Positions 5,956 through 62,367 of a stretch of 64,000 bases of DNA are shown here, one piece after another. Source of the DNA: Leptogorgia sarmentosa (taxonomy: Eukaryota). Made by a program: the position numbers and the translations under genes. Each line of letters begins with the position of its first letter. Within the stretch, counting starts at the first letter, position 1. Under the pieces are notes generated by a model. The model was not told the origin of the DNA. It did not search any database and saw only the letters and a list, made by a program, of their open reading frames with translations. The stretch lies in the NCBI GenBank assembly GCA_964658305.1, contig OZ210885.1:10416001-10480000 (forward strand). Direction: 5' to 3'.

Positions 5956-6004
5956 CGATTTACGGAAGCTTTCAAAATAGAGAAGGTCTTGCTTGGTTAA
6001 TGAA

Positions 6005-27966: not shown

Positions 27967-27973
27967 AGTCCCC

Positions 27974-28250
27974 GATGCTTATTTCGATTCCGTCGACGGT
28001 CGGACACCTCCAAGATGGTCGGACACCTCACTGTATTACATGAACAGCAGTGGCATTAGAAATAAGCATAATAATAATTTTTCAACTATTTTTTTCAAAA
28101 TACGCATTTTATTTTGTCAATGTTTAAAGTTAGGGTTAGGAATAGGGTTTGGGTTAGTGTTAAGCGCTGTTGAGTTGCTGAATACGAGTGAATGAGGTGT
28201 TCGACTATTATTGAGGTGCTCGAATGTCGGCAGATTAGAAATTTGCGTTC
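27974..28250. mobile_element. Short non-autonomous element with imperfect terminal inverted repeats and a GTTAGG-type microsatellite
   Basis: atttcgattccgtcgacggtcggacacctc versus gaggtgctcgaatgtcggcagattagaaat; internal gttagggttaggaatagggtttgggttag. Confidence 0.5.
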
Positions 28251-34816: not shown

Positions 34817-35402
34817 ATGATATCAGAGGAAGAACAACATTGGGTTTTAGTTGGCATTGCCTTTACCAAAGTTCTTGCACCTGCATTGAGGAAAGTTGTA
34901 GACACTGAACTTGGGAAATGGTATCATTCTTTATGCCAACCACCTGATGAAATTCACATGCAAGATTTTGCGGCATACAGAAGGAAGAAATTACCCCCTT
35001 CTACCCATAATCTACAATATCAAAACATTAACAACAACATTATTCACAAGCCTACTAAATCAGCTTATGATTATGCTGTTAAAGATCCTGTCTCGTTGGC
35101 GAAACTATTCGTCACGGACTTTATGGCACATTTCACTGGATTTGATAAAACCATGGATATGTCAGCACTTTTGACTATTATCGGCAAGGCAGCTCCTTTT
35201 GTATCTTCTGGCGCTGCAGCTGAAGCAAACAAAGTTCGGTCGGACATCAGAAACCCATGGGCTCATTGTAACATCTCTGAATGGACACTACATATGTTCA
35301 ATGACTCGTTTCAAGCAATGGAATCTTTGGTCAAAGTGTTAAATTTACCAACAGCTGACGAAAAAAGGATTTGTGATGAACTAGATTTCTGGAATAAAAC
35401 AG
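34817..35402 (+). CDS. Apaf-1-like STAND receptor, coding exon 1: putative HEPN RNase domain
   Basis: Predicted helical ~195-aa domain: EEEQHWVLVGIAFTKVLAPALRKVV...FTGFDKTMDMSALLTII...KVRSDIRNPWAH (Rx4H). Acceptor cttcatag lies 6 nt before the ATG; donor ACAG|GTACTG, phase 1. Confidence 0.85.
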
Positions 35403-36033
35403 GTACTGTATTATTAGCATTATTGCCGGAATTTCATCATGCCTTTAAATATGTTTTGCGCAGATCATTTTTTATTTCCTGTAGGAAAACCCCCTTATTC
35501 AAACTCTCTTATTCATTTATTATTATTATTATCCAATTTGATTCCTATATTACCATATTATACAATTCAATGCAATTCTCAGTACAATCAATCGTTGGAA
35601 TTCTGCGATAGTGTAGCTACTTTAAACTTTACAGGGTCATATTTTTCGCATTTTACAACATTTTCTCAACCAAACTTTACAGTTTTACTAACTTTGGGAT
35701 GCTCTTTAACGCTGTTGCTCTGAATTGTACTATTTCGAAATTTTTAAAAATTGTCTATTATGCAAAAAGTCTACTTTACTCAAAACGTCCAACCTAGGTT
35801 GCATTGTTTAGGTAGTGGGTATGACATGTGCTGCTTGCTGATGTTGTTATCCCCACCTACTACACTGGCCGCATATTGAAGTTTGCTAATAACCACAGCA
35901 GACCATGCTTATCATATAGTTTGCATGGACAGCAGGGCATGCTTTTCCATGTATCCTTCGTGCTACGCCCATTAGCAGCGGTATATTTATAGTGTTTGTG
36001 ATACTCAAGATAAGTTTTCTTCATTATTTCCAG

Positions 36034-36128
36034 ACATTCTTGTTGATGGTCGTCACGCAAAGCTAATTGCAGAAAGTGTAGCTGAACTTTGCGGTTGTAT
36101 CAAAAACTGCGATTTGGACGCCACAAAG
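36034..36128 (+). CDS. STAND receptor exon 2 (linker)
   Basis: tttccag| DILVDGRHAKLIAESVAELCGCIKNCDLDATK |gtttga; phase 1 to 0 bridges exons 1 and 3 exactly. Confidence 0.75.
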
Positions 36129-36907
36129 GTTTGAGGAACTTTTGATGTTTCATTTAACAGTCATTGAATAAGTAGGAAGACGCTGTTCAAATTAATATAA
36201 GACATGTTTCAAATGCGAGCGAGTGCAAATTTTCAGCGTGGGAACGCAATCTGTGCTTTTTTCGATAATGCTGTTTTTATTGGTTTTACTTTAACCGTCG
36301 CACGTTACAAGTCAAACTTCTGCATACACATTTTGGGACACGTTTGCAACAGAATATTTAGAACGAAGCGTGTACCGATAAATAAAACACACTACATATC
36401 AATTATTGATAAATACTAATATAAATACTCTTTTAGAAAAAAAACTAGCCCTATGACATGCACCCCATTAAGCAAAACAATTGAGGCATTCTCATAGGCA
36501 AGAGATAAACCTAAATTTTGATATATAACTATTATTTTTCCTGGCAAAATTGCTATTGATGTTCCAACGTTGAACTACAATTTTCTGAAAAGTTTAAAAA
36601 CTAGAAAACATACATATCAAATTTCAATAGACCTTATGTATAATGACGTCACAAGAGGTTATCTTGCATGGAATTCTGGTTCTGCTGGTCGGGACGGAAA
36701 CGTTCATTCGTTTTCAAAGATTCCTGCTTTTACTACCAGAATTGTAAGTACGTATCTACCCTTCTGACGTTTTATGCATGAGGTCATGTAGTTTATTTGT
36801 TGAAATGCCATGCAGTATTTTGCACGCTACTGCTTTATAACTACAGGAACATTGTTTTATTCAATACGAATCCAACCTGAGCATATTCGTTGGTGTCTGT
36901 GGAATAA

Positions 36908-37034
36908 GGCCAGTTGAAACTTGAGACGTCGAACTTTTCATGTGCCGAGCCCAATCCAATTGAACTCAAACAAAGAACTTAGCTCGTTAACATTAGGTTT
37001 GGCACATGAAATGTACGACGTCTGAACTAGGCCT
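36908..37034. mobile_element. Small MITE (Harbinger-like ends)
   Basis: ggcc...agacgtcgaacttttcatgtgcc versus ggcacatgaaatgtacgacgtctgaactaggcc. Confidence 0.6.
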
Positions 37035-37377
37035 ACGGCATCCTAAAGAACGAAAATCTAATGGCGGCAACGCTTATACCATGCCTTTCGAATATGAATC
37101 CGAAATGAAGTATAACGAAACTTGAATCTTTAAAAGTAAAGAGAAATTTGAAAACCTTTTTTATGCTAACGCTTTGGCTATAATACTTCCGCGAAAATGA
37201 ATGTAAATTTTGTCGACATATGGCCCGTTTTATAATTATTTTTATCCCGTAACTGTTGAATTTGCTTTATAATCGATCAATAAGTTCCAAAAGCATATAA
37301 ATTGTTTAATTATAGAACTTTCTGCTTCTTTTTATGGCAATTTAAGATGTGATAGCTAAATATCGCTGACTTAACAG

Positions 37378-37496
37378 TGTCCATTATCATGCACCCTGCC
37401 TTCATTTACCTTTATGAATCATCGACTTCTTTTCGAGCTCATCAAGTATACGTCTTCCTTCACGACGGCTGCACGAAGTTCTTCCGGCTACTTTGG
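37378..37496 (-). pseudogene. Antisense fragment homologous to the exon 5 3' end and donor site (41878-41996)
   Basis: Minus strand reads KVAGRTSCSRREGRRILDELEKKSMIHKG|gtaaatgaaggcagggtgcat, versus KVAGRTSCKDREARRILDELEKKSMIQKG|gtaaatgaaggcagggtgcat in exon 5. Confidence 0.9.
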
Positions 37497-37737
37497 TCGC
37501 ATTTTTGGAGCACATTGTGGGACAATAGGGCAATATTTCTAAAAAGAATATTGCATGATGCTTCGAAATATAATTTCATTTCTAATGCTGACCAGAGAAT
37601 ATCGCACATTCATACATGTATTGTTCTCTGAATAAAGCATCATTTGTATCTCTGCAGATATTTTAATCTTTAATGTTTATTCATGAAAATTTAATATAAA
37701 TTGAAATATTTATAGCTGTTTACTTGTATCTCTGCAG

Positions 37738-39169
37738 ATGAATGCCGTGGTAGAGAAACTTGACAACATCCAGTCAAAACTGGTCTGCAGAATTGAAAAA
37801 GTTGAAAAATGTGTCGCGAAAAACTCGGAAAAACTTGTCCATCAGTCGAAGGAACTTGGAGAACACTCAGAGGAACTGGACCATCAGTCAAAGGAACTTG
37901 GAGAACACTCGAAGGAACTGGAACATCAGTCAAAGGAACTAGAAGAACACTCAAAGGAACTGGACCAACACTCAGCAAAGTTTGATCATCAGTCAAAGGA
38001 ACTTGGAGAACACTCAAAGGAACTGGACCATCAGTCAAAGGAACTTGGAGAACACTCGAAGGAACTGGAACATCAGTCAAAGGAACTAGGAGAACACTCA
38101 AAGGAACTGGACCAACACTCAGCAAAGTTTGATCATCAGTCGAAGGAACTTAGAGAACACTCAAAGGAACTGGACCATCAGTCAAAGGAACTTGGAGAAC
38201 ACTCGAAGGAACTGGAACATCAGTCAAAGGAACTAGGAGAACACTCAAAGGAACTGGACCATCAGTCGAAGGAACTTGGAGAATATTCAAAGGAACTGGA
38301 GCAACACTCAGCAAAATTTGATCATCAGTCGAAGGAACTTGGAGAACACTCAAAGGAACTTGAACAACACTCGGCAAAATTTGATCATCAGTCAAAGGAA
38401 CTTGGAGAACACTCAAAGAAATTGGACCAACACTCAGCAAAATTTGATCATCAGTCGAAGGAACTGGATCATCAGTCGAAGGAACTTGGAGAACACTCAG
38501 AGGAACTGGACCATCAGTCAAAGGAACTAGGAGAACACTCGAAGGAACTGGACCATCAGTCGAAGGAACTTGAACAACACTCGAAGGAACTTGGAGAACA
38601 CTCGAAGGAACTGGAACATCAGTCAAAGGAACTAGGAGAACACTCAAAGGAACTGGAACATCAGTCAAAGGAACTTGGAGAACACTTAAAGGAACTGGAC
38701 CAACACTCAGCAAAGTTTGATCATCAGTCGAAGGAACTTGGAGAACACTCAAAGGAACTGGACCATCAGTCAAAGGAACTTGGAGAACACTCAAAGGAAC
38801 TGGAACATCAGTCAAAGGAACTTGGAGAACACTCAAAGGAACTGGACCATCAGTCGAAGGAACTTGAACAACACTCGAAGGAACTGGACCATCAGTCGAA
38901 GGAACTTGGAGAACACTCAAAGGAACTGGACCATCAGTCGAAGGAATTTGAACAACACTCGAAGGAACTGGACCATCAGTCGAAGGAACTTGGAGAACAT
39001 TCAAAGCAACTTGGAGAACACTCAGCAAAATTTGAACATCATTCCAAGGAGCTTCAAAGCCATGCGGACAAAATTGAGAGTACTTTCAAAGAAATTAAAT
39101 GTTTACAGCAAAATGTCAACAAGACGGAGAGTCATCGTGAGAAACAAAGAAATTATTCGCCACCAAAAG
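37738..39169 (+). CDS. STAND receptor exon 3: long heptad-repeat coiled coil
   Basis: tctgcag|ATG, phase 0; 21-bp coding repeats SKELGEH/SKELDHQ/SAKFDHQ; donor AAAG|GTATTA, phase 1. Confidence 0.88.
37846..39063 (+). repeat. Coding minisatellite: 58 x 21-bp units with a 147-bp higher-order unit
   Basis: 1218 bp equals exactly 58 heptads; 7-heptad blocks start at 37846 and 37993. Confidence 0.95.
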
Positions 39170-39802
39170 GTATTAAATTGTTGAAAAAAATATTACAATG
39201 TGATTACGCGCCACAAATTAGCCAGCGAGAGTAATTGTAGGAGTATATTCGGATCTGTTGAGAAGCCACTTAATTTTATGTATGAATTAAGCAGTTATAT
39301 AGGTATATCAGTTAGACGTTTAGTATTTTAGCATTATTCAATATTTGGTCCATCAGTTAGATAGTTTGCGTAGTGTTCTCCAGTTTAACGTTTCTAAATT
39401 AGCACAGGTGTACAACGCAAAAAGTTGGGAAAATGGCGTGTATGCAATCCAAAAGACCTCGCATGCAGTGTTTTGGCACAGGCAGATAACAGAATTTTCT
39501 TGAATATTTATTAAACTATTTTAATTTGACGATTTCAGACACGACAACTCATGCGAGGAAAGCCATACGTAAAAAATTCTGAAGATTTAGCCAATCAGGG
39601 TGAAGTAATTTTTCCCTGAATGAGGAAATATCCTCTTCATTAGTCATTCATCAGGTTTTATTAAATTTACCCTCTATATGATTATGGGAAAAAGTAGCCA
39701 GTTTGAGACAATACAAAGAATGTGCATGAATTTAGCTAGAAAGTCAGAGAATGTGCATTTTTAAACGCAACGCCTATTAAATACATACACCCCCCCCCCG
39801 AT

Positions 39803-39953
39803 AAAACGCCACCATTGAAAATAATCTATAACAACATTTTCGATAGCTATTAAGAAATTTTCAACAATTTGTGCACCCTTGGGTTAAACTTATAGTGCGA
39901 GGCACGGAGGCATTGTAATTCTAACAATAGATTATTTTCAATGGTAGCGTTTT
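39803..39953. repeat. 27-bp inverted repeat pair (MITE relic)
   Basis: aaaacgccaccattgaaaataatctat versus atagattattttcaatggtagcgtttt, one mismatch. Confidence 0.7.
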
Positions 39954-40097
39954 CAATTGTTTGGGACGCCCAGTAGATTGACACGATGCAGCGTTAGCAA
40001 AAGGGTCGCCGGCTAATATATGTAATTAATTGTCCATTCGTTACGCACACAAAAGTGGGTCTACTAATACAGCATCAATTCTTATTTTATATGTTAG

Positions 40098-40435
40098 TTG
40101 CCCATGGATTACGCAGTCTACCTCGTGACATGGTGGAAAGACCATCAGAAGTGAACGAGATATTAAGGTTACTTGCGGATGGAAATGATAGAGTTGGTGT
40201 GGTTGGGAATCGTGGGGGCGACGTCGTTGGTATCCGTGGTATGGGGGGTCTGGGTAAGACCATCTTAGCTCTGGCCGTTGCTTGGGCTGCCAAAGAATCT
40301 CGTCAGGTAATATGGCTTGACATTGGAGAAACTCCAGACTGTCTAGCGCTGATTAACCTCCTCATAAAAGACATTGGTGGAGAAATGACGTTCCCTGATA
40401 TCCGTGCCGCGCAAGGCTGGATAAAAGCAAATACG
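40098..40435 (+). CDS. STAND receptor exon 4: NB-ARC with Walker A
   Basis: atgttag| phase 1; LPRDMVERPSEV...VVGIRGMGGLGKTILA...VIWLDIG; donor ACG|GTATGT, phase 0. Confidence 0.95.
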
Positions 40436-40504
40436 GTATGTGCGCATTTCCCAGGGTTTATATAATACTGGTTGCCACGATGTAACAAAATATACCCATA
40501 GGGC

Positions 40505-41165
40505 TAATTTACTTTATCCCTGTAAACGGCAGCGTAGCGGAGTATGTAGGGCTCAGATTCGGCGCCGCCGTTTTGGGCTATCGTGAATGGTCATCACTGA
40601 TCTCAAAAATATGGCGGACAATCATGAAAAGCCGAAGCTTTTTAAAGCCTTTGGAAAGGCGAAAACAAAGACAAGATCTGCGCTGTAAGATTTAAGGTCG
40701 CCGTAGCCGCATTTAATCTTCTCACGATTTAATTCCAGAGTATAAGTTCATGTTTTTAAAAGCAAAACTTCACAAAATATTTACAAATTTTATCCTAAAA
40801 GAACACGAGCGAACATTGGCTGGAAATTGTTTGATATCAAAGATTGACTTAAATATTTAAATGAAAAGTTTCATGCAAATAAATGCAGTATTTCGCAGCA
40901 AATTCAAGTTTATATTAGTCCTAATAACGTACGGATAACAATTAATGGTTCTCCAAATTAAAAAAAGCGCCAATAAAACAAAGATATAAAAGCTAATATT
41001 TTGACTGTTTTCAAAATATACAGAAATATGAATTGCCGATCGCGTTGCCATGAAACAACCTCAGGCGGCTCTGTCGTACTTCATGTTCCAAATATATAGT
41101 TGCATTTTTTTGCAACTTCTAAAAAAAGGCGAGGGGTGCTGCATATACGTATTTCTATTTTCTAG
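40505..41165 (-). mobile_element. Second, internally deleted copy of the 7112-8670 repeat family, in intron 4
   Basis: Reverse-complement similarity to 7112-7830; lacks about 150 bp found at ~7572-7720 and lacks the nested MITE. Confidence 0.75.
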
Positions 41166-41321
41166 CATAAACTTTCATTGATCCCGATTCTTTTACCACG
41201 TTTCTGTCATGAGAGTTGGTGAGGGTCGTCCTTCTGATTCAGAAGCCATGTTTACTCTACCCCTGCTTTGCCACAATTAATTTTACCCTTGCGACGATAA
41301 AGTAGATTCTATGTATTGCAG

Positions 41322-41964
41322 AGTGACAAAGATTGCTTGGTGATTCTTGATGATGTTTGGAATGTAAACCACGCTTCTGTGTTTGATCATCTCTCTGGAA
41401 AATGCCAATTATTAATAACTACCAGAGATTCTGAAGTTGTCCGCGGTTTACAAGGTTCTGCTTTGTACACACTCAAATTTTTAAAACGGGATGATTCTTA
41501 CAAGCTCTTGTATCAAACTGCCCGAGTCACCACGGACGAGCAGTCTAAGTTTAGTTCAAACATGCGGCAAATTATAGAGGAACTGTTAAACCACTGCGGC
41601 GATCTACCGCTAGCTCTGTCCCTAGTGGGTTCAAGTTTAGCCGACACTCGCGACGAACAAGACTGGGAGGACGTTTTAAATGACCTAAAAACAGCAGACT
41701 TGGTAAAATTACGTTCAATATATCCCGCCAACGCTTATCCTTACAACAACGTTTTAACAGCCATTAACGCCAGCTTTCAACATTTGGACGAAGAAATACG
41801 AGAAACGTTTCTAGATTTCGCTTTATTTCCAGAAGATACGGATGTACCATCAGACATTCTTGAGCTGTTTTGGTCTTCCAAAGTAGCCGGGAGAACTTCT
41901 TGTAAAGATCGTGAAGCAAGACGTATACTTGATGAGCTTGAAAAGAAGTCGATGATTCAAAAAG
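41322..41964 (+). CDS. STAND receptor exon 5: Walker B, sensor 1, GxP, start of winged helix
   Basis: ttgcag| phase 0; CLVILDDVW, LLITTRD, CGDLPLAL, FLDFALFPED; donor AAAG|GTAAAT, phase 1. Confidence 0.96.
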
Positions 41965-42157
41965 GTAAATGAAGGCAGGGTGCATAATAATAGACAAAAA
42001 TATATCGCTACAGTTGGAAACAGGGTGTAAAAATTACTATAACTGAAGAAACATCATAAAATGGGAATATCATTGCCAGACACAGTTCGCTCATTGTGTG
42101 TACATTGTATCAGTGCGAACAAAATTATATCCATTTCAGACGATAATGGGTATTGTT

Positions 42158-42582
42158 ATATAGTTGGTGTCAATGTTCAATTTTCCTGTTTGCTGATTGG
42201 ACAAAACCGTATCACGTGCCGGTCCACATAACGCCATGTTCGCCAACCGGTCAAAAATAAAAAAATTATTGACCGGGCAACAATTAAATAGGCACAATGC
42301 GCTTGCGCGTCAACCGTGAAGTCCAAAGTTCATTCAATCGTACGATGTTTTGAAATTTATCGAACATGTACGGCGTAAGGCGTCCCATTCAATGTCTGTT
42401 TTTTTGGTTTCAAAGTTAACTCCAGTATTAAACCGGTGAATTCATTGATATTTTGACACTAAACTATACAAAAAAACGCTAAACCTCGAGAAACATTGTG
42501 TTTTGTGGCCCCTCAACCGCCATTCAACGGTAGTCTCAGGGCCACAAAACACAATGTTTCCCTCGGTCTCAGTAAATAAGTG
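42158..42582. mobile_element. Unclassified repeat ending in a long hairpin
   Basis: gaaacattgtgttttgtggccc ... gggccacaaaacacaatgtttc perfect 22-bp stem within ~42490-42560; overall boundaries approximate. Confidence 0.5.
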
Positions 42583-43098
42583 ATAATTAAATCACTTCTG
42601 CGTTATAAATAGTATGTAAATTGTGCCAAATTTGCATGGGCACAATTTCCCCATTTTATGATATTTATTCTTCAAACTTGGCTTTCATACTAATTTCAGC
42701 ACGCTGTTTCCAACTGTGATGATAGCTTGTTGCTTGTTGTCTTATTTTTAAACTTTTGTGATCGCTAAATTTGTATGTTGCTTCCTGCACCATAATCAAA
42801 TGAAATTCAAGAAAACGACGTGAGGTTTCTGAAATATTTTTTTACTACAGCTCCTTTTGCGAAAGCTGGATATTAACTGTCAACACGTTGTTAGGCTGAA
42901 CATTTAATCAAACCAATGTCAAACAAGCCTAAGGAAATTAATTTTCAGCTATAATCGTATGTTGACTCATATGTGGGCAAGCCAAATTTGCCCGTTCATT
43001 TGCCCAATATTTATAGTGTTTTCCTCTGACATTCCTAGATGAGTAACAAATCGAATTGAATGGAAAATACTTCCATCGCCCTGGGGTATGCTAAGTCT

Positions 43099-45460
43099 AA
43101 AAAATAGGTTCGCAAAGCGCACATGTATCTGCGAATGGTGAAGCAGAACTGACGGATGAGCCGTCGGAAAGCGCAATCGGACATGCTAAAAAGTCCTGGT
43201 TGCGCTTAAATCTACCTCTAAAGTATTGGTTTGCAAGCAATAAATGAACCTAAGCTAAAGCTAACCCTAAATATGAAACTAATCGAACCCCAAAGCCTAA
43301 CGCACAAAACATTAAAACCTAGAACTATACTCAAACAGATTTCCTAAATCAGCATACTGTCTTATTAAATATGCGATGTTTAGTTAGTGTTGACTGTTCT
43401 CATATACAGCATTTCTCACCTTCCTCCTTCGACTCTTTCGTGAAAAATACGAGGAAATTCCTTGGGAAAAAACTTTCTTTGTGCCTCCAATATGCATAAA
43501 ACTATGGCTTTATACTGAATATCGTGGGATTACCTAATATTACATGTAAATGTCATTAAATTATTTAATTATATCGTTTTGGCCTTAATTCAATTTTGAC
43601 CGCCATCTTGAATATGATTAGATTTAACCTGCGAACAGGCTACTTTAACAGAATGTATCCAGTTTTTATTTAGCGTGCTGTGACAAAACCGTTCATGGGT
43701 CGGCCATCTGGACAGTGTGCTCTGTACGCATTTTCAATTTACAAATCGAAAGGCCGATAAAACCAGGGGCGTAGCGAGGGGGGGGGGCGTGGGGGGTGTG
43801 ACACCCCCCCAATTTTTTTGAAAATGGTCGGTAAATGAATTGCGGTCGGTTTTGAAGCCAAAGGGTCGGTAAATTTTCAATTTATGTCATTAAATCACAG
43901 AGAGAGCAGAAAAGTAAAATATGTAAAAGTATATGCCTGTTGTCTATGTCCGTGTGCGATTACTTCGCAAGCTGTGGTTGTACTACATCTAAGACCTCTA
44001 GACTCTATTCTGAGTGTTAAGGCTTTGGTTAACACTCTGAAATGGCCGTTTCCGGCGATCTAGAGGCTCTAAATTCACAAAATTTTCTCGCTCGACGCCA
44101 ACCATGGTGGCGTCTCGTGAGACTCGCCCTCCCCACCAAATAATCCGGCCCTGTCGTGCCCAAACCTATTTAGTCGGTAAAATATTTTGCTTTACACCCC
44201 CCCTATCGGAATGGCTTCGCTACGCCACTGGATAAAACAGCACGCTGCCGTTTCAAATCCTTTGTTAAATTACAACTGCACATTGACAGGGTCCTGCAAA
44301 GTCAAGATTGTTTGCTTAAACCGTCGTACTTAAACACTGCACTTCACATTTTCGCAAAAATCCGATCGAACATCGCCTTCACTCCTCGAACGCCGCCATC
44401 TTGCATTACGTAATTATAAGCAAAAGCTCGTCGCTGATTGGCTAGAAGCTAACAGCTAACAGGTAACAGCTAACAGCTAACAGGGTCATAGCATAGTATC
44501 TGCGTTCGCAGATACAAAAATAGGTTCGCAAAGCGCACATGTATCTGCGAATGGTGAAGCAGAACTGACGGATGAGTCGTCGGAAAGCGCAATCGGACAT
44601 GCTAAAAAGTCCAGGTTGCGCTTGAATCTACCGCTAAAGTATTGGTTTGCAAGCAATAAATGAACCTAAACTAAAGCTAACCCTAAATATGAAACTAATC
44701 GAACCACAAAGCCTAACGCACAAAACATTTAAACCTAGAACTATACTCAAACAGATTTCCTAAATCAGCATGCTGTCTTATTAAATAAGCGATGTTTAGT
44801 TAGTGTTGACTGTTCTCATATACAGCATTTCTCACCTTCCTCCTTCGACTCTTTCGTGAAAAATACGAGGAAATTCCTTGGGAAAAAACTTTCTTCGCGC
44901 CTCCAATATGCATAAAACTATGGCTTTATACTGAATATCGTGGGATTACCTAATATTACATGTAAATGCCATTAAATTATTTAATTATATCGTTTTGGCC
45001 TTATTTCAATTTTGACCGCCATCTTGAATATGATTAGATTTAACCTGCGAACAGGCTACTTCAGCAGAATGTATCCAGTTTTTATATAGCGTGCTGTGAC
45101 AAAACCGTTCATGGGTCGGCCATCTGGACAGTGTGCTCTGTACGCATTTTCAATTTACAAATCGAAAGGCCGATAAAACAGCACGCTGCCGTTTCAAATC
45201 CTTTGTTAAATTACAACTGCACATTGACAGGGACCTGCAAAGTCAAGATTGTTTGCTTAAACCGTCGTACTTAAACACTGCACTTCACATTTTCGCAAAA
45301 ATCCGATCGAACATCGCCTTCACTCCTCGAACGCCGCCATCTTGCATTACGTAATTATAAGCAAAAGCTCGTCGCTGATTGGCTAGAAGCTAACAGCTAA
45401 CAGCTAACAGCTAACAACTGAAAGATCATAGCATAGTATCTGCGTTCGCAGATACAAAAA
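43099..45460. mobile_element. Two head-to-tail copies of a ~945-bp Helentron/HINE-like non-autonomous element
   Basis: Units start aaaaataggttcgcaaagcgc at ~43099 and ~44516. Each has a subterminal gtatctgcgaa motif, a terminal hairpin gtatctgcgttcgcagatac, (agctaac)n and ctaaccct microsatellites, A-run junctions and no TSD. Confidence 0.7.
43764..44230 (+). mobile_element. hAT MITE copy 1
   Basis: TIRs CAGGGGCGTAGCGA/TCGCTACGCCACTG; 8-bp TSD GATAAAAC at 43756-43763 and 44231-44238; empty site visible at ~45172. Confidence 0.96.
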
Positions 45461-45736
45461 TTATTGTTCTATAGCCTGACTGCAGTCCCAGAATGCTCTA
45501 GTGTCCTGTACAAAAACGTTTCGAATCACCATACGTGACTAATATGTTCTCTAATGGCAGAATTTAATTCAGTGCGAAATGGCGCACGATCGACTTTTAG
45601 CGAACGCCCTATTTTGAAATACAAACAGTCAACGATTCTCATTAACTTTGGGTGATTGCAAGCATTTCAAAAGAAAGCGATCGCTAACCAAAATTTTGCA
45701 CTTAATTGAAATTCGCCTTATAACGATAATTTTCAG

Positions 45737-46150
45737 GATCTGGTATCCATGGAAAGAAGAGCTACCGTCTCCACGATCTGCTTTTGGGTTTTGCACGTGC
45801 AAAACTAGGAGGAGGCAAACTAAGTTCTGTCCAAAGATTGTTCGTGAAGGCACTTCGTGGTCATTGCGAGAACGGTGATTGGGGAAAATTTGAAGGCCAC
45901 AAGGATTATTATTTCAAGTACCTGACCTATCACCTCCACTCCTCCGAACAATTTGATGAACTACATAAACTGTTCTTCAATTTTAACTGGCTTTATGAAA
46001 AGGTGAATCAATTCGATCTCCCCTCCTTAATATCAGATTTTCGTTTTCTGGACCCTCCCTCGGAAGAAATCGAACTGCTCAAGTCGTCGTTGATGCGGTC
46101 TTTCGAGGTTATCGAGAAGAATTTGCATTCTATTGGTCCACAGCTGTTAG
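45737..46150 (+). CDS. STAND receptor exon 6: MHD-type motif and helical domain 2
   Basis: ttttcag| phase 1; SYRLHDLLLGFAR...YYFKYLTYHL...LFFNFNWLYEKV...PQLL; donor TTAG|GTAATT, phase 1. Confidence 0.95.
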
Positions 46151-46954: not shown

Positions 46955-47730
46955 GTTACTCACAGATATCCACGACATGAGTAAGTTCACTCACAGCTAC
47001 CACGACATGAGTAACTTTACTCACAACTACCATGACATGAGTAACTTTACTCACAGCTACCATGACATGAGTAACTTTACTCACAGCTACCATGACATGA
47101 GTAACTTTACTCACGCTACCACGACATGAGTAACTTTACTCACAACTACCATGACATGAGTAACTTTACTCACAGCTACCATGACATGAGTAACTTTACT
47201 CACGCTACCACGACATGAGTAACTTTACTCACAACTACCATGACATGAGTAACTTTACTCACAGCTACTCATGACATGAGTAACTTTACTCACAGCTACC
47301 ATGACATGAGTAACTTTACTCACGCTACCACGACATGAGTAACTTTACTCACAACTACCATGACATGAGTAACTTTACTCACAGCTACTCATGACATGAG
47401 TAACTTTACTCACAGCTACTCATGACATGAGTAACTTTACTCACAGCTACTCATGACATGAGTAACTTTACTCACAGCTACCATGACATGAGTAACTTTA
47501 CTCACAGCTACGCATGACATGAGTAACTTTACTCACAGCTACGCATGACATGAGTAACTTTACTCACAGCTACTCATGACATGAGTAACTTTACTCACAG
47601 CTACTCATGACATGAGTAACTTTACTCACAGCTACGCATGACATGAGTAACTTTACTCACAGCTACGCATGACATGAGTAACTTTACTCACAGCTACGCA
47701 TGACATGAGTAACTTTACTCGCAGCTACTT
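46955..47730. repeat. ~30-bp minisatellite (~25 copies) with an internal palindrome
   Basis: Unit TGAGTAActTTACTCAcagctaccatgaca, 29-31 bp variants. Confidence 0.95.
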
Positions 47731-49024: not shown

Positions 49025-49620
49025 GAGGAGTCAGAATTACTCATAAATTTGAGTCAATTTTCATTTTACTCAGGATGTTGAGTCACTGTGGGTACATTTT
49101 GCGTGAGTCAATTTTACTCAACATTATGAGTCAGAATTACTCATAAATTTGAGTCAATTTTCATTTTACTCAGGATGTTGAGTCACTGTGGGTGCATTTT
49201 GCGTGAGTCAATCTCACTCAACACTTTGAGTAAATTTACTCTTAAGTTTGAGTAAATTGTAGTTTTACTCAGGATGTTGAGTCACTGTGGGTGCATTTTG
49301 CGTGAGTCAATCTCACTCAACATTTTGAGTAAATTTACTCTTAAGTTTGAGTAAATTTTAGTTTTACTCAGGATGTTGAGTCACTGTGGGTGCATTTTGC
49401 GTGAGTCAATCTCACTCAACATTTTGAGTAAAATTACTCTTAAATTTGAGTAAATTGTAGTTTTACTCAAGATGTTGAGTCACTGTGGGTGCATCTTACT
49501 TGAGTCAATTTTACTCAACATTTTGAGTAAAAGTACTCTTATTTTGAGTAAATTTTACTCAACAATTTGGGTCACTGTGGGTGCATCGTTTTACTCAGAA
49601 ATTTGAGTCAAAATACTCAG
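49025..49620. repeat. Subterminal tandem repeats (~100-bp period) of the CACTG element
   Basis: ttttactcaggatgttgagtcactgtgggtgcattttgcgtgagtcaat recurs about every 100 bp. Confidence 0.85.
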
Positions 49621-50559: not shown

Positions 50560-51575
50560 AGTATTTGCAACATTATCAATTTCAGAATGCTATTAGTAAA
50601 ATTTCAGAACCAGCTCAATTCTTCGTTCGTACCAGTGAATTATTTAAAAACGAAAGAATACAAGTAATGGACAGTTATGTATCAAATCAAGTGGGTAATA
50701 ATGAAGAGGAGTGGTCGCAAATTACTTCCATGGGACTGAACGGTCATCAGGTCTTATGGATACATTATTACAAGAAACCGATATTACACAAGATGGTGAC
50801 AGAATAATAAGTTTTGCACCAGGAGAAGGAATGCCTGTTCATTATAGCACTATATGTAAATGGGAATTGCGAAGCAAAGATAGAAGACTCGCGCAGTCTG
50901 TCCCAAACATTTTTAACGAACTAAAGAAATTACAGATCAGGCAAATTCAAGGAAGTGCAAGTCTTCATTGCGTAACTGTAAAACTAAAATTAAAATTTTT
51001 AAATCAGAAAGTTGTGTCAACAAGTTAATAAATTTGGTTGAAGGATTTGGAGTTTTAAGAAATTTACGCGGATCTCCTCCATACTTTGAAAGGTGTAAAA
51101 AAGATCTATTTGCCATGATTCGCCAGCTTGGTAAACCTACGTGGTTCTGTTCATTTTCAGCAGCTGAAACACGGTGGATTCATTTGACCAAAATTCTTGG
51201 TCGTCTTATAGACAATAAAGATTATAGTGATGACGAAATTAAACAAATGACATGGCAGAAGAAATCTGAACTGATCATGATGCAAAAAGATCCAGTCACA
51301 TATGCAAGAAATTTTTGACATATGGTACAATTATTCATTCACAACTTCATTAAAAGCCCAAGTCATCCAGTTGGAGAAGTTGTTGACTTCTTCTATCGCG
51401 TTGAATTTCCGCTAAGAAGTTCTCCACATATCCACGGCTTATTCGGGATAAAAAATGCTCCTGAGTATGGTAAAGATATATAGTGATGAAGATATTGCTG
51501 AGTTTGTCGATAGTTATGTTTCATGTAGAGCTGACTCAGATTATTTAACTGATCTCGTAAATTTACAAATGCAGA
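50560..51575 (+). pseudogene. Helitron/Helentron Rep (Helitron_like_N, HUH endonuclease) relic with stops and frameshifts
   Basis: ISFAPGEG; LRNLRGSPPYFERCKKDLFAMIRQLGKPTWFCSFSAAE; KDPVTYARNF*; FFYRVEFPLRSSPHIHGL (HUH motif). Confidence 0.9.
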
Positions 51576-52485: not shown

Positions 52486-52731
52486 GCAGACTGCTATCTT
52501 ATGAAGAGTATCCGGGGATAAAGACGCTATTAGTGCAACTCCGTGCAACATGCACGGAGACTTGCCGTCTTATACCGGAATTCTCATGTTTAGATCATGG
52601 TGGCCCTGAAATCTTTCGAAAAACGTTTGATTCAAGGGTATGCTCATTAGCGACGTCCAATACCTCATCCGCTACTCTTGTCATTTGTGGTTTAAGGAAT
52701 GGTTCAATCACAATCTTTGATCTTGACACAG
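52486..52731 (+). CDS. STAND receptor exon 7: end of HD2 and first WD40 blade
   Basis: tttacag| phase 1 completes QLL-GRLL; ...LVICGLRNGSITIFDLDT; donor ACAG|GTAGGT. Confidence 0.92.
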
Positions 52732-53384: not shown

Positions 53385-53745
53385 TAGGGACCTTAAGATG
53401 TAAAACGCCACAAACTCGACAACGGGGTCTAAATTTCAGCTTGAAAATGAGTGCTGACCTTTTTATGCTTTAAATAGATGTTGGAATTTTTTCAAGAAAC
53501 AGATACGCAGGTTCAGCTAAAGCAATGCGATCGTTGCTGCCGAGTCAACTTGAAGTTACAGCTCTCACGTTGTAATCAGTCTTCACGTTGCTTTGAAGAC
53601 GTTATAATGCTTAGCTTAACGTTGCGTTGATAACAACAAAGCCGTTGATACCACAATTTATGCTTGGTTTTTGTTCAGCATAAAAATTTGTTTGTTCGGA
53701 AAGCTCGTCGTCGAGTTGGTCACGTAATAGATCTTAAGGTCCCTA
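53385..53745. mobile_element. MITE with 15-bp TIR (Harbinger-like)
   Basis: TAGGGACCTTAAGAT/ATCTTAAGGTCCCTA. Confidence 0.75.
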
Positions 53746-54525
53746 ATCCTCTCCTACAAAATTGCTATGACACCATTTTTGAACTTATCCACAATGCAGT
53801 TGTCTTTCTATTAGGAATGCCAGAAAAGTCTGGTGATAGTTACAGTTTGATAAAATAAAAATAAACCACTGTATAGACGCATCATATTTCGCGCAAATAA
53901 GTAAGTATTAATAATATCACGCCATCCAAATCTCATTTCGTTACACGGATAATTATCCAAATTTTTCAGACCTGCAGCCCACTGCCCCGGTTTTTGAGAA
54001 AAGTTTCAGTTTTGGAAGCATAGAAATTCAATCATAACGTATATATTATGATTATATTATACACATATTCATACATGCCTTTTTTGCTAAGCAAAAAATC
54101 TTTGATCTTGGTTATTCATTGAAATGAGAATATAATTAATATGCAGTTGATATGGGTGAGGGAACAAAGGTTTACACTCAAAGTAATTGATAATTCATTA
54201 GAAAACAAGACGCCCGCTCTGGCGTTAGCTTGCGATGCGGTTACAGTCAGTGTTGATCGTCAAAGATCCTGTATGTACTACACAACTGTGCAACTAAATA
54301 TGAGGCTCAAGTTTAGACGTCAAACTTTTGTCGAATCAAATGCATTTCAAACAAAAAATAAACAGTCAACTCGTGACTTACTCGTCTAATTATCCATTAT
54401 TTGAATTGCATTTGACTTGGGGTTTTACTACATCCCGGGCGTTCTTTGCCGGCGCCCGCGATTAGCATAAAATTAGACAGCGGTTCAACAAGAAAGCATC
54501 ACAGCTTAGCATTGCTGATTTCTCG

Positions 54526-54655
54526 ATAGGTTAGGGTCAGATTACCGGCCGGGTTGGGGTTATTAATAAATAACCCCAACCCGGCCCGTAGTCTGACCCT
54601 AACCTATTTCTTGACAGGTTAGGGTCAGATTACGGGCCGGGTTGGGGTTATTAAT
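54526..54655. repeat. Forward-inverted-forward triplication of a ~39-bp unit
   Basis: aggttagggtcagattac[c/g]ggccgggttggggttatt at 54526 (+), 54569 (-) and 54616 (+). Confidence 0.92.
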
Positions 54656-56059
54656 CAAGCCTAAACTTTAAACAGTGGAATGGCACTTTGCAAAAGATGA
54701 AATATTGGTAAACGGCAAAAGTTTGAGTTGTAATTTGTGGTTCAACTTTGCTGTAAAACGAATGATCCATCACGCATGCGTATTAAATCACGCCTAGGTT
54801 TACTAAATAAATGGGTCCCACAATTTATGCTCAAGACAATAGTAATTTGAATATATAGGTAGTGACACTATTAACTATTGAATAATAGTTAAATGTTTTA
54901 GTGTGACGTAATTGCAAGACTCTGGAGAGTGACGAAATTACAGGCTTGAATACTAATGATCCAGGGGGAGAATAACTGAATAATAATGAGTTGCTGGTAG
55001 TTTTAGCGGTTGGCCGAGCGGGAGACTGCTGTCTACACGATTAAAAAAAAAATAATAAAAAAAATGCCGAATTTAAAGCTTGCTATGCTACGCATCGCAA
55101 GCAATTAGCCAATCATGTACGGTAGTCGTCGTAATATGATGATGTTTGAAATTTGGATTAGATACTTGAAGAGACATGTTCATCCATATAGTAAAATATT
55201 CAGTCATTTCTTGAACAGGATCAATGTTTAGTGGGTAAAAAATAATAAAATCTCACAAATGGCTGGAGGGAATGCTTTTGTCTTCAACATATTAATAAAA
55301 GTATAAAAATCAATTCGGACAGAGTGACATATTATTTCTTCTAACATACAATTATTAAGAAATCGTGTGCATAAATGATATCTGCCAATTTTAAAATGTG
55401 AAAGTTCAGTAATTACAAATACAAGTAGGACAACATTCCTGTGCAATCATTGGTATTCGCTGTATAGAATATTTCCTGTTTATAGCTTCATGCATCCTTT
55501 CCAATTATCTACTTTCTGTTCTACCACCAACATCAGCCACTAAATTTTAAGCACTAGTAAATATATTATAAGTTTCAGTAAACTGTTCGGCATTGACCGT
55601 TACTCTACCACTTTTGTTATCGAGGCAACAGGGACCGGTAGCGAGTCTTACCCAAGCGTTCATGTTGGCTCGATACCTATATCTATGGACTTACACAACA
55701 AAGATGAGGGCATATTTTTATGAAATCCCAAGAAGTAACGAATGAAAACACACGCCTGTAAAACACGCCACAGTAAATTCCGCAAAATTACAGTTATTTT
55801 GTTTTTAGTATTGAAGATCGTTTCGGTGTTTGTCTATCGCTTACATTGCTGTTTAAGTTGCTATAGGGACGTAATAGTATAAATGGAAGTTAACGGTGTA
55901 AACAGAGTGTAGCTGATGGGTTAGTTAATGTAGTTACTTGTCTGAATTATTTATTTTATCGCCGCAATGTTTTGAAAAATACTCCCAATGTAGTAACGAT
56001 GTGAGTGAAAATTACCTATTACACCCTTTTATATGCGTACTATCTTATTTTATAAACAG

Positions 56060-56278
56060 GTAGAGAAGTTCAACAACTACAGGGACATTCTCGCCACGTT
56101 AGCTGTTTGGCTGTGTCACAAAGTGGAACAATACTAGCGTCGGGGTCGTGGGACCGAAGTACAATCCTTTGGAGAATGGATAATTATGAACAGCTTTTTG
56201 TGTTCCAAGGGGAGAGAGCAGCTAATGCTCTGAATTTCAGTGCAGATGATCAGCGAGTGTTTATTGGAACAGACAATG
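56060..56278 (+). CDS. STAND receptor exon 8: WD40
   Basis: aaacag| phase 1; LQGHSRHVSCLAVSQSGTILASGSWDRSTILW; donor AATG|GTAAGC. Confidence 0.95.
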
Positions 56279-58302
56279 GTAAGCATCTTAAACACAAATC
56301 AAACAAGGATATCAAAATGTTGTTCAGAATAGGTAAACGAAAATTTGCATAAACGTTTTCTCGACTTCCGCTCTGCTTAAAAGTTAGTATTAAAGTGCGC
56401 GAGTTTCGATAAGAAATAAGATTTTGCTGACGTGTACGGATTTAACGGTTCTGAAGGAACGCCAGCAACGATGCCATTGGAGAAAAAATTAAATCCTTTT
56501 CATATCATGTTTGTCAAATAACTCCACAAATGATCATACTTTCGGAAATATGTTACCCTGCCGGTACCAAATTAAATATTGGAATACTTTTATTAAATTA
56601 AAATAATTATTTTTTCTTCAAATAAAAATACTTGAAAGTACGTTCACAAAATGTTTGTTTTACGTTGCAAATTCAGCGGCGTCAATCTCCAGTGTCGGCG
56701 CTCGGTTGAACCGTTGTGGATGGCCTCTTAATTATACCTCTTAGCTTCACATTTTTACTATGCTAACTCTACGAAATATTCTCCTGAATTCTGCATATGA
56801 TATGCATTTTAATTCTGTTATTTCTTATCGAACATATTATAGCTATTTAACATCTCTTCTGCTTCAATTATACCCAAAAGGCAAAAACGTTCGGTAAAAA
56901 GAAGCACACTAAGATAAGTTCCTATAAAGCAGAAACAATGACAACAGTAAAAGTTTGACTGTAATATATACAACAATTAATATACTGTCAACATCCAAGC
57001 ACAATTTAAAAGGCAACAAAATTGTTTCAGCTAGCTACTGAATGATATCAAACATTTTGTTAACTTCGAACTTTTTTGCATCTTCAGTTTCAATAAAAAA
57101 TTTTTGAATTTCACATTAGCCACGGTCCTGAAGAAACCTCTTCCCAGGGCCCCCGGCCAGGTTGGGCCCCTAGTAGTTACGCCACTGTGTACATCGCTAT
57201 TTACTAAAAAATTGGCTTCACATTTTAAAACAAGAACGTTTATGAAGCGGATTGATGCATATCGTTTCAGTTCTTGGGCTTCACGTAACGTTCCATATTT
57301 GAGTGGGAGTGCACTCTAAATAGCGACGCAGTCATCACAGTGAGTTAAATATTCACTGTATGTATTCAACTTGTGCTTCGTAGCGAATATGTGAAATTCA
57401 GAAGCATTTCGTCAGATTCGTGCAGCATAATGGTTAATACATTTTAGAAAAATGTATTACTTACGAAAAGTACTCTTCCTCTCCTACTCTCTCTCCCTGG
57501 GGGGGGGGGACAAAATTCCTGGAACACCTGTCATGTTTTTATGTCGTGTGCGAATAAACCAGAAGTGAGTTTATCCAAGACTGAAAAACCTACGAATAAC
57601 GCACCCTACGTAATCAAAGGCATGTTTTCCACGTGTTTCAGACTATTGCGCAACCTGATTTACCTGTTTTAGTAAATGCCGTGCGCGTGCGCAAATTTTT
57701 GACAATTGCAAAAAAGCTTGTAGAAATGTTATTATACGTGCAAATAACACGAAATATGCAAAATAAAAAGAACATAACACAGGTTTCATGACTATGCGGC
57801 TTCAAGGAGAAATAAGGACATGGAATTCAACATATAAGTTTTTCTCAGATAGATGCTAATATGCCTTACGTTTCCGACGATCAATCTTTATTTTTTTTGT
57901 GTTGTGTTTTAACCAGCATGCGACCCACCGTTCGAAAGATCATTTTATTAGGATTTCAATGGTGTTTGTTTTTATTTCGTGCGGTATATCCTCTGCAGCG
58001 AAAAAAAAATATTTAAAAATTTGTATTTCAACTTCCGGAAAAGTGTTGGAGAGAAAGAGAGCTCGTTTGTACATTTACAAACGTCGTCGTACATTTCAAC
58101 CATTTTTATCTGAATTCTTACCTGTAACCTGTTGTACATAATCGACTACATTTGGAAACGAAGTATATTTTCATTATTTTGAAGCGAAGCCCAACTGCCA
58201 TACATGGCCCTTGCTTCATGGTTGTAACTTTCGCGATCTGTAATCAAGTTTTACCAACAGTACCACTGGTATGGATGCCCTGTGCAATGCATACAATTTG
58301 AC

Positions 58303-58783
58303 CAGGGGCGTAGCGAGGGGGGGGGGGGAGGGGCTGTGGGGGGTGTGACACCCCCCCCCCAATTTTTTGGAAAATGGTCGGTAAATGAATTGCGGTCGGT
58401 TTTGAAGCCAAAGGGTCGGTAAATTTTCAATTTATGTCATTAAATCGCAGAGAGAGCAGAAAAGTAAAATATGTAAAAGTATATGTCTGTTGTCTATGTC
58501 CGTGTGCGATTAGTTCGCAAGCTGTGGTTGTACAACATCTAAGACCTCTAGACTCTATTCTGAGTGTTAAGGCTTTGGTTAACACTCTGAAATGGCCGTT
58601 TCCGGCGATCTAGAGGCTCTAAATTCACAAAATTTTCTCGCTCGACGCCAACCATGGTGGCGTCTCTTGAGACTCGCCCTCCCCGCCAAATAATCTGGCC
58701 TTGTCGTGCCCAAACCTATTTAGGTCGGTAAAATATTTTGCTTTACACCCCCCCCCTATCGGAATGGCTTCGCTACGCCACTG
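58303..58783 (+). mobile_element. hAT MITE copy 2
   Basis: Near-identical to 43764-44230; 8-bp TSD AATTTGAC at 58295-58302 and 58784-58791. Confidence 0.96.
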
Positions 58784-59243
58784 AATTTGACAACAATGTA
58801 GCTATGGTAGAGGGTGGGTTTATGAAATTTACAAACGGCATCGTATCGTGTGATTGGACCATGTTCACTAATTCTTTTTGTGGTTGATGCCAGGAACAGC
58901 AGTTTTACAACGTAGCTGTAGTAAAATGATTTCCTGGGAAAACCAGATACGTCTGTTTGAGTAGCACCTCTCAACCTTCGCCAAAAGTACAAATTGTTCA
59001 TATTCAAACAATAATTGCAACAGCTGGTTTGAGGATTCCAGCGACTGCGTATCTTCAAACCAGCGGTTAACTGTAAACGTCGTGTAGAGCGCGGTGAAAC
59101 GCAGTGTAAAAACATAAGCCAGCAACAGCCAGAGCATGTTCAGCGCCGGAGAGGGACACAATTAAAAACAAGATTTCACAAAATCGTCTAGGGTTAGACA
59201 TTATTGAAACATCAGTCTGACGAGTATCCATCATGCGTTGTAG

Positions 59244-59453
59244 GGCTGAAAGTGTATTGCGTATCTACTGGAGAAAACCTCTCAACAAGTATTCCTGAGG
59301 GAGTCACGTCGCTGTGTACGACCAAAGATGGACAGTTCATTGCTACTGTTGGATATGATGACAAGACTATCAAGTTGTGGAAAGCCGATACACTAAATTT
59401 TGAGGCCAGTTTTGTTGGCCATAAAGCTTGGGTGAAATGTGTTGTCGCAACAG
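59244..59453 (+). CDS. STAND receptor exon 9: WD40
   Basis: ttgtag| phase 1; GQFIATVGYDDKTIKLW...FVGHKAWVKCV; donor ACAG|GTATGC. Confidence 0.93.
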
Positions 59454-61072
59454 GTATGCAATACTGTATGAGTTAATATTTCATAACATTTTGAAGATCT
59501 TACTTTAATACAGTTTCTTCGTATTATTTTTGTTATTTTTTTCGGATAAAACATATTCTTTATTATAAACTTCCTTAATGGTTCAATAAAGCAAGGATTG
59601 GAGGGGAATATCATGTCTTGGAATAAATTTTCCCAATTATTGCACAAAAATACCTGCTTGCAACAGCATTCTAATATTGTAATTAAAAATTATGCCCAGA
59701 AAGAAAGCAATGTCTTTCCTTAATTGTTAGTATGGTGGTAACCAGTGCATTCATGTACAAGCAATATTTTAGGACTTTCTGATTTCTTTTAAATTTTTAA
59801 GCTGGTTGTATTTGTATATGCTAAGAGTATTTTAAAATGGCCAATAGATTTATCTATGCTAGCTTTCTAAATATACTTTGAGACAATTTGCTTGTGTGCG
59901 TATATTTCAACTGATTACACTGTGTTGCAGACCTTAATGTATAAATTGCAATACTGTACTAGTAGATTCAAAAGACTTGGCATTTATTTGGCATGAAGTG
60001 ACGGATGAAAGCCAACATGAATGTTTTTTATAAAGTAATATTGTTTTAGATATACTGTCCATTGCCAAGGTATATAGCCAGGTGTCGTTTGACATACCTT
60101 GTCCATCTTCACCTCAGATCCTCTTATTCCAACAGACAAAATTTATATAGTTTGACCTGTTTTATAATTGTTGTGACAAACGTTGTGCTGTACTGTTAGA
60201 ACTTGGTAGGTTAATTGCTTGGATAAATGTGATAATAATTGAATTTAATTGGTCAATTTTCACAGTTACTCAGTGACATGAAAGAGCAGCTAGGCAACAG
60301 TTAAGAGCAGTTGAACACAGTTATGTTCCCAAACATAAATATGAATACATGTGCAAACCAATAATCATGACATGAAATGCAGCAATGAAAATTTCCCATT
60401 GCGGTACATGCTATAGTGTACGTACTGTTCAGTACTGTTACACTCTGGTTTTGAGTAATTGCACCGACGCAGAGTTCTTACGATCTTTCATTAGACTTTT
60501 CCGTAACTTTACAGTACATAGTATTGATATAGGTTGAAATAGCAATTATAAATTTGGGTACTCGAATATTTCCTCAGGAAAAAACGTTTTAGACTTTTCA
60601 GAAGTTAAACTTCGTTTTAACACTTATATTATCATATCGTGTTCACAGACCAACACACACACATACACACACAAACAAACCAAGATGATTACATAACCTC
60701 CTCGCCGTGGTAATGAGCCTTAACACTGTGCAAAACTAACTGGAAGAATGGTGTTACTTTGCACAATTCATTCGTGATCATGACTGTTGTACTTGCCAGA
60801 CGGTTCGGCCATATTTTGAGTATTTCAACTGACACATTGGAATTTCTTTTTGCGTAAATTTCTCTTAAATATCCTAACGGTACCAACAAAATCAACTTTC
60901 TGTATAATTATGGACTACTATAGAATCCATTGCCTTGACTTGCAGAAGCATATATGAACATTTCTCCTGTCAGCGATCGAGTTATTGAATATATTTAGGA
61001 TATCAATATGTACTTTGCTTCCCCTTGTTTTTTTTGTGCCAGTTCGACTAAAGTGCAAAGTTTCTCTTTTAG

Positions 61073-61316
61073 ATTCAGGAAAAAACAATCCAATGCTTGT
61101 GTCTGGTTCATACGATGGGACAATAAAAATTTGGGATTTAAAACTATATAAAGAAATTCGTACTCTTAAGGGTAATGAATCCATTGTTACCAGTGTCGCT
61201 GTGAGCGATGATAAAAAGAATATTATCTCTGGAGACAGCAGAGGAAGTGCGAGGTTGTGGTGTTTGCACACTGGAAAGTGCCTTTCCTGTTATGAAGGTC
61301 ATATCAATGAGATCAG
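61073..61316 (+). CDS. STAND receptor exon 10: WD40
   Basis: cttttag| phase 1; LVSGSYDGTIKIWDL...IISGDSRGSARLW...EGHINEI; donor TCAG|GTGAGT, phase 2. Confidence 0.95.
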
Positions 61317-62134
61317 GTGAGTTCACTCTAGCAGCTATATCTAATTTAGCGAAAGGATCGTTAAGCGGGCATGGCAACAACGAAGACCCAATACATCACA
61401 TTAAGCTTAACATACAACACATTCTGTTTTGTGTAATTGTATTAATTTATTACGATATTTCACAGTCACACTTAGACGTACTGCTTCTTGAAATAGGTTA
61501 CTGATGAATTCAAAAGATAGCGAAGTTGAACACCATGAAAGTAATTTTCAGTCATCCATTTGTTCACAACGCTATAAGAATTTCTAGTTGTTACACTAAT
61601 ATACTGATTGGCTTCTGGCTATAGTCGTGCTTATTTGCAATGGACGACTTGGGCTTTAGAAAGATTTTAATGAGGGATAAACGTAGGAAATTCAGCGTAT
61701 GACATCCAATGCAACATAATTTTACCTGTTGTACATCTATCATTATCCTATCTTGTATTGCTGCTTTCGTTGATTTTCTGCCGTACTGAACTCTACAATA
61801 TGTCAATAGGGCTCCCGTTGATAACAGTGATTTTTATTACTGACGGGACTACCCTATGTAAATAAAGGTTTTATCTATCTATCTTCTTAATTGTTGTCGA
61901 CATAATAATAGAACGATTTTTGCTAAAGATAAAGTGACCATAGATGTAGTTTTCATTTGCATTAACATTCGATGAATAGGACATATTTCCCAGATCATTT
62001 ATGAATAAATTATACAGCATATTTTGATGATATGGGTTTCTTAAACTATCAATAGTCCGGCAGAGATCGTCTTTGCCATTTTTCGGTAGAAAAAATTATT
62101 GTTAGTAATAAACAATCAACTTGTAATATTTCAG

Positions 62135-62367
62135 CGGTGTTGCAATAATTCCCAAAGAAAAGAAGGTATTGACAGCGTCATGGGATGGAAGTATCAGGGT
62201 TTGGAACCTGGGAACTGCTGCGTACATGGAACAAAACAGTTTCTCTGATCATTCAAATGACGTCACAGATATTACAATCACTCGTGGTGACTCCAGATGT
62301 GTTTCCACATCTACAGATGGAACTTTCAAAGTTTGGAATCTTCACACACAGTGCTTTTCTTTCACAG
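62135..62367 (+). CDS. STAND receptor exon 11: WD40 (gene probably continues beyond the window)
   Basis: atttcag| phase 2; VLTASWDGSIRVWNL...CVSTSTDGTFKVWNL; donor ACAG|GTATAG. Confidence 0.93.

Follow-up and report, generated by a model that had tools for sequence, protein, structure and literature searches.

A putative HEPN domain joined to a CARD-less Apaf-1-like NB-ARC-WD40 scaffold in Leptogorgia sarmentosa

The oligomerisation of Apaf-1 is well established, and ligand-driven pairing of HEPN-type domains is the activation principle of RNase L and of the Ire1 KEN domain. These RNases have a kinase plus ankyrin scaffold with a circularly permuted HEPN domain and are not STAND proteins, whereas the gene described here, on the forward strand of a 64-kb stretch of Leptogorgia sarmentosa contig OZ210885.1 (the window, in which all positions are counted), encodes a STAND protein in which a putative HEPN domain and a helical rod are spliced to an NB-ARC-APAF1_C-WD40 scaffold of the Apaf-1 type. 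We propose that the gene likely encodes a ligand-gated RNase that would be activated by oligomerisation.

Invertebrate HEPN-STAND genes are catalogued by the hundreds, with 17-83 HEPN-NACHT proteins per anthozoan (PMC8260672) and more than 50 in the pearl oyster (PMC9646362). Additional file 17 of PMC10236652, a study of five stony corals and no octocoral, has 180 WD40 rows, counted by hand, of which 112 are DZIP3-like HEPN-NACHT-WD40 proteins and 5 are NB-ARC-WD40 proteins, all five with an N-terminal DEATH label; HEPN-NB-ARC-TPR rows are tabulated as well. The InterPro scan of that study would probably miss the HEPN subfamily found here. The coral and oyster proteins appear to share with our gene a HEPN effector, a STAND NTPase, a repeat sensor, an intact Rx4H motif and a proposed RNase role; they differ in combining a DZIP3-like HEPN (PF18738) with NACHT, or NB-ARC with TPR, while the present protein has another HEPN subfamily on NB-ARC-APAF1_C-WD40. 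By analogy, the gene likely works like these catalogued HEPN-tipped NLR-like receptors, and the new part is the Apaf-1-type scaffold, the best-understood among STANDs. The general concept is less new than the first-pass annotation of this DNA, which was made from its letters, implied, HEPN-NACHT-WD40 and HEPN-NB-ARC-TPR proteins having already been tabulated for corals. No published HEPN protein with the NB-ARC-WD40 scaffold of Apaf-1 was found in a mostly open literature of which supplements beyond that of PMC10236652 may list one, nor is the architecture described in the accessible portions of PMC11251625 and PMC8195603.

The scaffold itself has precedents. CARD-less Apaf-1-like proteins of Nematostella, amphioxus and sea urchin (PMC2246300; PMC10959488) and their Dendronephthya/Xenia relatives have the same NB-ARC-WD40 core with an exchangeable N-terminus; the domains exchanged there (CARD pairs, i.e. 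2xCARD, DD (death domain), DED (death effector domain) and TIR) are described as interaction domains (PMC2246300), whereas here a putative enzyme sits on a long rod of heptads. In bacteria, Apaf-1 homologues have been noted to which a caspase-like protease is fused (PMC13581612); there too an enzyme takes the adaptor's place on an Apaf-1-type scaffold, a protease in their case and a putative RNase here. Apaf-1-like proteins have also been described as sensors of double-stranded DNA (PMC11747288). The CXorf38/DUF4559 family (PMC3710099) has in common with the gene a collinear profile similarity (seen in relatives of the domain), the RNxxxH motif, a conserved Asp upstream and cnidarian STAND/ankyrin fusions; it differs in a Zn ribbon within its insert, absent here, and in fusions that are with NACHT, not with NB-ARC-WD40.

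Gene model, splicing and scaffold

Eleven AG/GT-bounded exons with agreeing phases splice into one frame of 1,551 amino acids (aa) with no stop, as the first-pass annotation had claimed (it gave about 1,553 aa). The ten introns measure 631 to 6,335 bases. Exon 1 (34817-35402, splice acceptor at 34810) encodes the N-terminal helical domain (aa 1-195), a putative HEPN on the Abi2/Swt1-CXorf38 side, with D114 at 35156-35158 and the RNPWAH motif at 35249-35266; exon 2 (36034-36128) is a short linker and exon 3 (37738-39169) the helical rod. NB-ARC starts in exon 4 (40098-40435; Walker A 40238-40261) and continues in exon 5 (41322-41964), which holds Walker B, TTR, the GxP region (41598-41609) and the start of the winged helix. 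The LHD motif (45769-45777) and the APAF1_C helical domain follow in exon 6 (45737-46150), and exon 7 (52486-52731) ends the helical domain and opens the WD40 region, the repeats of which fill exons 8 (56060-56278), 9 (59244-59453), 10 (61079-61316) and 11 (62135-62367). In the spliced protein RNPWAH starts at aa 145, GMGGLGKT at 752, LVILDDVW at 823, TTRD at 850, GDLP at 910 and LHD at 1043. In Pfam, exons 4-5 match NB-ARC (E 7e-21), exon 6 matches APAF1_C (E 5e-12) and exons 8-11 match WD40.

The exon chain was compared with L002, a 4,084-base contig of a relative that has no introns; its single open frame of 1,209 codons encodes the protein P0001. L002 is collinear with exons 1-10 at 71-87% identity, with breaks at or adjoining the predicted junctions; at exon 9, whose acceptor was picked by phase, the match starts at 59312. 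Contigs of sequencing runs, three of which (X2-X4) come from one study and are not on record as RNA, include already spliced ones close to the sequence of the gene; a search of runs listed none recorded as RNA, and the five runs contain 0.40-0.44 of the words. In three of four runs (X2-X4) contigs leave the window at 35402 and continue with 8-13 letters that are the start of exon 2; the 41964-45737 junction is present in contigs of two of the four, and contigs of two pass from 46150 into exon 7. Because L002 is collinear with exons 1-10 and run contigs cross 35402, exon 1 belongs to the same mRNA as the NB-ARC exons, in agreement with the first-pass annotation. Three junctions had been singled out there for checking: 35402-36034 is the one crossed, whereas 36128-37738 and 39169-40098 occur in run contigs solely as paralogue-like loose ends.

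At the 3′ end, exon 11 closes with a GT donor and has no stop, and five aligned relatives end their match at residue 919-1144 of 1,472-1,709; the protein is thus incomplete in the window, the relatives extending some 550-570 aa more. The WD40 sensor of Apaf-1 itself is made of two propellers. A further exon of at least 30 codons was not found in 62400-64000. At the 5′ end, X3 and X4 contigs have an upstream exon joined at 34810, whose open frame is that of the ATG at 34817; it was not found within the window and may be that of a paralogue or sit at a great distance upstream.

Residues 392-778 of P0001, which together with P0289 is a full-length protein sharing the architecture of the gene, match Apaf-1 150-526 with E 6e-57, and a partial exon matches the Pfam APAF-1-like winged-helix domain (WHD) with E 0.007. 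The Apaf-1-type scaffold named in the first-pass annotation is thereby confirmed. Pfam finds no CARD in exons 1-3, and by its sequence the product is a CARD-less Apaf-1-like paralogue and not a strict-sense Apaf-1. As had been stated, both Walker motifs (A and B) are intact, as are TTR and LHD; the GDLP that had been listed with them is not an intact GxP, reading D-L-P where G-L-P stands in 8/8 compared relatives. This Gly-to-Asp change counts against the mechanism proposed here, and with the big repeat expansion of exon 3 (59 heptads L/F-x-x-H/Q-S-K-E, a count taken from the assembly alone, with a 42-bp tandem array at 37832-39011; P0001 holds about eight heptads of the same kind) it would fit a switch-impaired paralogue, be it decoy, sensor partner or decaying gene, of a fast-turnover family. 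We give that reading only a slight probability: the 1,551 codons are free of stops, the four other motifs are intact, spliced contigs near this sequence exist, and the gene is under purifying selection, the ratio of non-synonymous to synonymous substitution rates (dN/dS) against L002 being 0.24-0.50 across four regions, with 0.26 for the exon 1 domain (192 codons).

Family, motif and fold of the N-terminal domain

The N-terminal domain belongs to a large animal family of 125 proteins of like length and 16 longer ones, with 554 clusters at 50% identity. Its RNPWAH motif lies where a predicted helix (133-149) ends and is the putative catalytic motif of a HEPN; of 113 aligned relatives, 112 keep R145, 112 keep N146 and 112 keep H150. 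The 150 best representatives give 131 aligned stretches that cover the motif, and 122 of these keep both R and H of RNxxAH; the conservation of Rx4H on which the first-pass annotation had staked its case is thus upheld. D114, the acidic residue 31 aa ahead of R145, is invariant (113/113), with spacings of 29-35 in nine relatives. In CXorf38 the site has been proposed, as a prediction only, to consist of D134 and RNEIMH (R162) (10.64898/2026.05.28.728550, a 2026 preprint), and D114 may, from its spacing, be the counterpart of D134. A CXorf38-type inserted Zn ribbon was not found in the domain: C151 is the sole conserved Cys in the 113 relatives and the 131 stretches, and the insert has no conserved Cys pairs.

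The link to HEPN runs through relatives. At E<=0.1, HEPN_Swt1 is matched by 83 and DUF4559 by 42 of the 113. When 35 chosen members were rescanned, P0187, P0237, P0244 and P0256 exceeded the DUF4559 cut-off (28.0-36.9 vs 27) and P0249 that of HEPN_Swt1 (29.5 vs 27.5); these five can each be aligned with most of exon 1, at 32-38% identity, and their matches span the motif. DZIP3-like HEPN (PF18738) is matched by 0/113 members at E<=0.1 and 0/66 at E<=0.01; its sole lead is from the Atlas, where neighbours have HEPN_DZIP3 or DUF4559 on 11-38% of their members. AbiF, Swt1 and CXorf38 have been grouped together, and CXorf38-family NACHT fusions described in cnidarians (PMC3710099). PADLOC gave weak matches (2/66 to its CARF-HEPN model, E 0.004), and of 23 pattern matches in genome contigs none was confirmed as a relative from bacteria or archaea.

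The AlphaFold model of the domain is all-helical, with a predicted local distance difference test score (pLDDT) of 93. In a wide structure search (VIA), HEPN is named in the titles of three of the 18 best entries (2hsb, 7ae2 and 3o10), and 5yep, 4pqz and 8oz7 of the same 18 are entries which we take to be HEPN as well; 2hsb aligns over 97 residues and 4pqz over 118, both with Z 7.1 and a root-mean-square deviation of 3.4. Several results count against the assignment. Exon 1 has no Pfam family match and so lies below the cut-offs of Swt1-like HEPN (PF18731) and DUF4559 (PF15112). Its match in the Atlas is weak (score 2029, under the guide value of 2300). The top Foldseek row, AbiF, has E 1.7. 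In VIA, HEPN-type chains (Z 6.8-7.5) are tied with acyl-CoA dehydrogenases (7.5-7.9) and a designed cage, and a second structural look was dominated by bromodomains; these structure searches do not tell HEPN apart from other bundles of four helices. A sequence search of the PDB with the family profile gave nothing significant.

These fold searches and the missing PDB match would fit a non-HEPN helical bundle with a structural RNxxAH. Relatives whose matches to two HEPN-related models of Pfam exceed the curated cut-offs and take in the motif, and the recurrence of HEPN-type entries in the top VIA rows, make such a bundle highly improbable. The domain is very probably a HEPN domain, as judged from its relatives; because exon 1 misses the Pfam cut-offs and the fold search does not decide, we call it likely, not shown. 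The first-pass claim of HEPN identity accordingly stands as a sequence link through relatives and not as a family match or fold preference of exon 1 itself. Filing the domain under PF18738, PF18731 or PF15112 was rejected, since exon 1 reaches none of their cut-offs.

There is also a good chance that the domain is catalytically active. It could instead have the HEPN fold and serve as an RNA-binding or like-with-like adaptor, taking over the recruiting role of the DED or DD that it replaced and tying the protein to other family members. The domain does sit where relatives hold interaction domains, and its longest structural alignment (118/136 residues) is with the C-terminal domain of yeast Swt1, which Anantharaman et al. 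(PMC3710099) call inactive. Against such an adaptor, inactive HEPNs typically lose the motif according to the same authors, while here its R, N and H and D114 rank among the best-conserved columns at about 30% identity; we hold it to be unlikely and favour a catalytic domain.

Origin of the fusion and proposed mechanism

Among 43 long members of the domain family that were scanned, the partners are NB-ARC-TPR, NACHT-LRR, nSTAND3-ankyrin, Roc-COR, AIG1 and kinase-KEN, and WD40 is found with P0001 only. Because the domain is fused to NACHT-LRR, NB-ARC-TPR and nSTAND3-ankyrin proteins it behaves like an effector, which suggests that it may act as a swappable one; that this HEPN subfamily is a widespread, poorly annotated effector in many invertebrate sensors is about an even bet. 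Pfam misses the effector family in the present protein, and such genes are therefore annotated without their N-terminal domain. The same putative HEPN is seen in P0240, P0166, P0185 and P0180, on a kinase plus KEN RNase, the C-terminus of Roc-COR GTPases and an AIG1 GTPase; the kinase-KEN fusion resembles RNase L and has two domains of RNase type.

Two of the 120 NB-ARC-region matches listed carry the domain. The closest named relatives are from Dendronephthya and Xenia, and the nearest relatives by the NB-ARC region are 53-66% identical to P0001. Six near relatives have at their N-termini a DED in five cases (two of them partial and below the cut-off), two death domains in one, from Xenia, and a CARD in none; a HEPN "in place of CARD", as first proposed, was rejected in view of these DED- or DD-bearing neighbours. 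In a careful tree of 17 rows, the three NB-ARCs with a HEPN group together with support of 89/91 (not starred) within a DED/DD clade supported by 100/100, and keeping the seven non-HEPN members of the clade together is rejected by the approximately unbiased test (p-AU 0.012). The HEPN-bearing group was defined after viewing a quick, unfinished mixture-model tree of 36 rows from which the 17 were taken, and both trees were made from rows other than vertebrate Apaf-1 and cnidarian CARD-Apaf-1. The HEPN domains of the gene group nest, in a quick tree, among those of HEPN-NB-ARC-TPR proteins. Similarity to the DED/DD-bearing relatives starts at the 5′ edge of exon 4, i.e. at the exon 3/4 junction, and a DED or DD exon was not found elsewhere in the window. 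The simplest account of the fusion would be exon shuffling: a CARD-less Apaf-1-like paralogue would have acquired HEPN and linker exons of the expanded HEPN-NB-ARC-TPR family, and these would have taken the place of its DED exons at the phase-1 intron ahead of exon 4.

We propose that a ligand, to which the gene sequence gives no pointer, would dock on the WD40 repeats, upon which oligomerisation through the NB-ARC switch would pair the putative HEPN domains and these would cleave RNA. The outcome would be the decay of RNA as an antiviral defence, or a suicide of the cell that needs no caspase. HEPN catalysis requires a dimer (10.64898/2026.05.28.728550), and the heptad rod would keep the HEPN domains off the hub and aid their pairing. 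Two more points weigh against this scheme: Krasovec et al. (PMC10959488) hypothesise that CARD-less Apaf-1-like proteins probably take no part in oligomerisation, and no experiment that tests an animal HEPN-STAND protein was found in the mostly open literature searched.

The rod could also hold the HEPN domains of an RNase pre-paired, the STAND module gating them by release of autoinhibition or by relocation and not by clustering in a ring. Exon 3 is predicted to be helical nearly from end to end, in a single-chain model with a predicted template modelling score (pTM) of 0.25, and in CXorf38 a downstream helix is predicted to cover the site (10.64898/2026.05.28.728550). The linker, of about 105 aa in P0289 and 146 in P0001, has about 513 in the present protein, so that a fixed ring geometry is not conserved. 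On the other side, His/Gln at heptad position d makes a weak core, and no pairing is visible in the single-chain model; we see a small chance for a pre-paired enzyme and retain the oligomerisation-activated RNase as the likely one. The wider picture, an animal apoptosome scaffold rewired by an exon swap, in which a cnidarian Apaf-1-like receptor gave up caspase-recruiting death-fold domains and gained a HEPN nuclease, borne on a helical arm of variable length, that would kill or silence the cell by cutting RNA, could equally well be right or wrong; if right, it would parallel bacterial antiviral STANDs with fused enzymes. Close relatives that differ mainly in their effector (DED, DD or HEPN) offer a clean test of killing through a fused RNase.

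Other features of the window

Several introns of the gene contain repeats or mobile-element remnants. Intron 2 has, at 37409-37496, an 88-bp inverted copy of the end of exon 5 (89% identical). Intron 6 holds a 31-bp minisatellite of 25 copies (46956-47728), a 99-bp array of five copies (49035-49557) and a Helitron helicase-like fragment (50917-51315; Pfam Helitron_like_N, E 2e-8), and introns 5 and 8 share near-identical repeated elements (43100-45461 and 58301-58783; 95-98%). Upstream of the gene, a long direct-repeat array at about 14400-28000 is built of units of about 2.1 kb with 85-97% identity and has no long open reading frame. Ten tRNA genes (three for Glu, two for Pro and one each for Trp, Thr, Gln, Asn and His) lie on both strands at 3060-6258, partly within inverted duplications.

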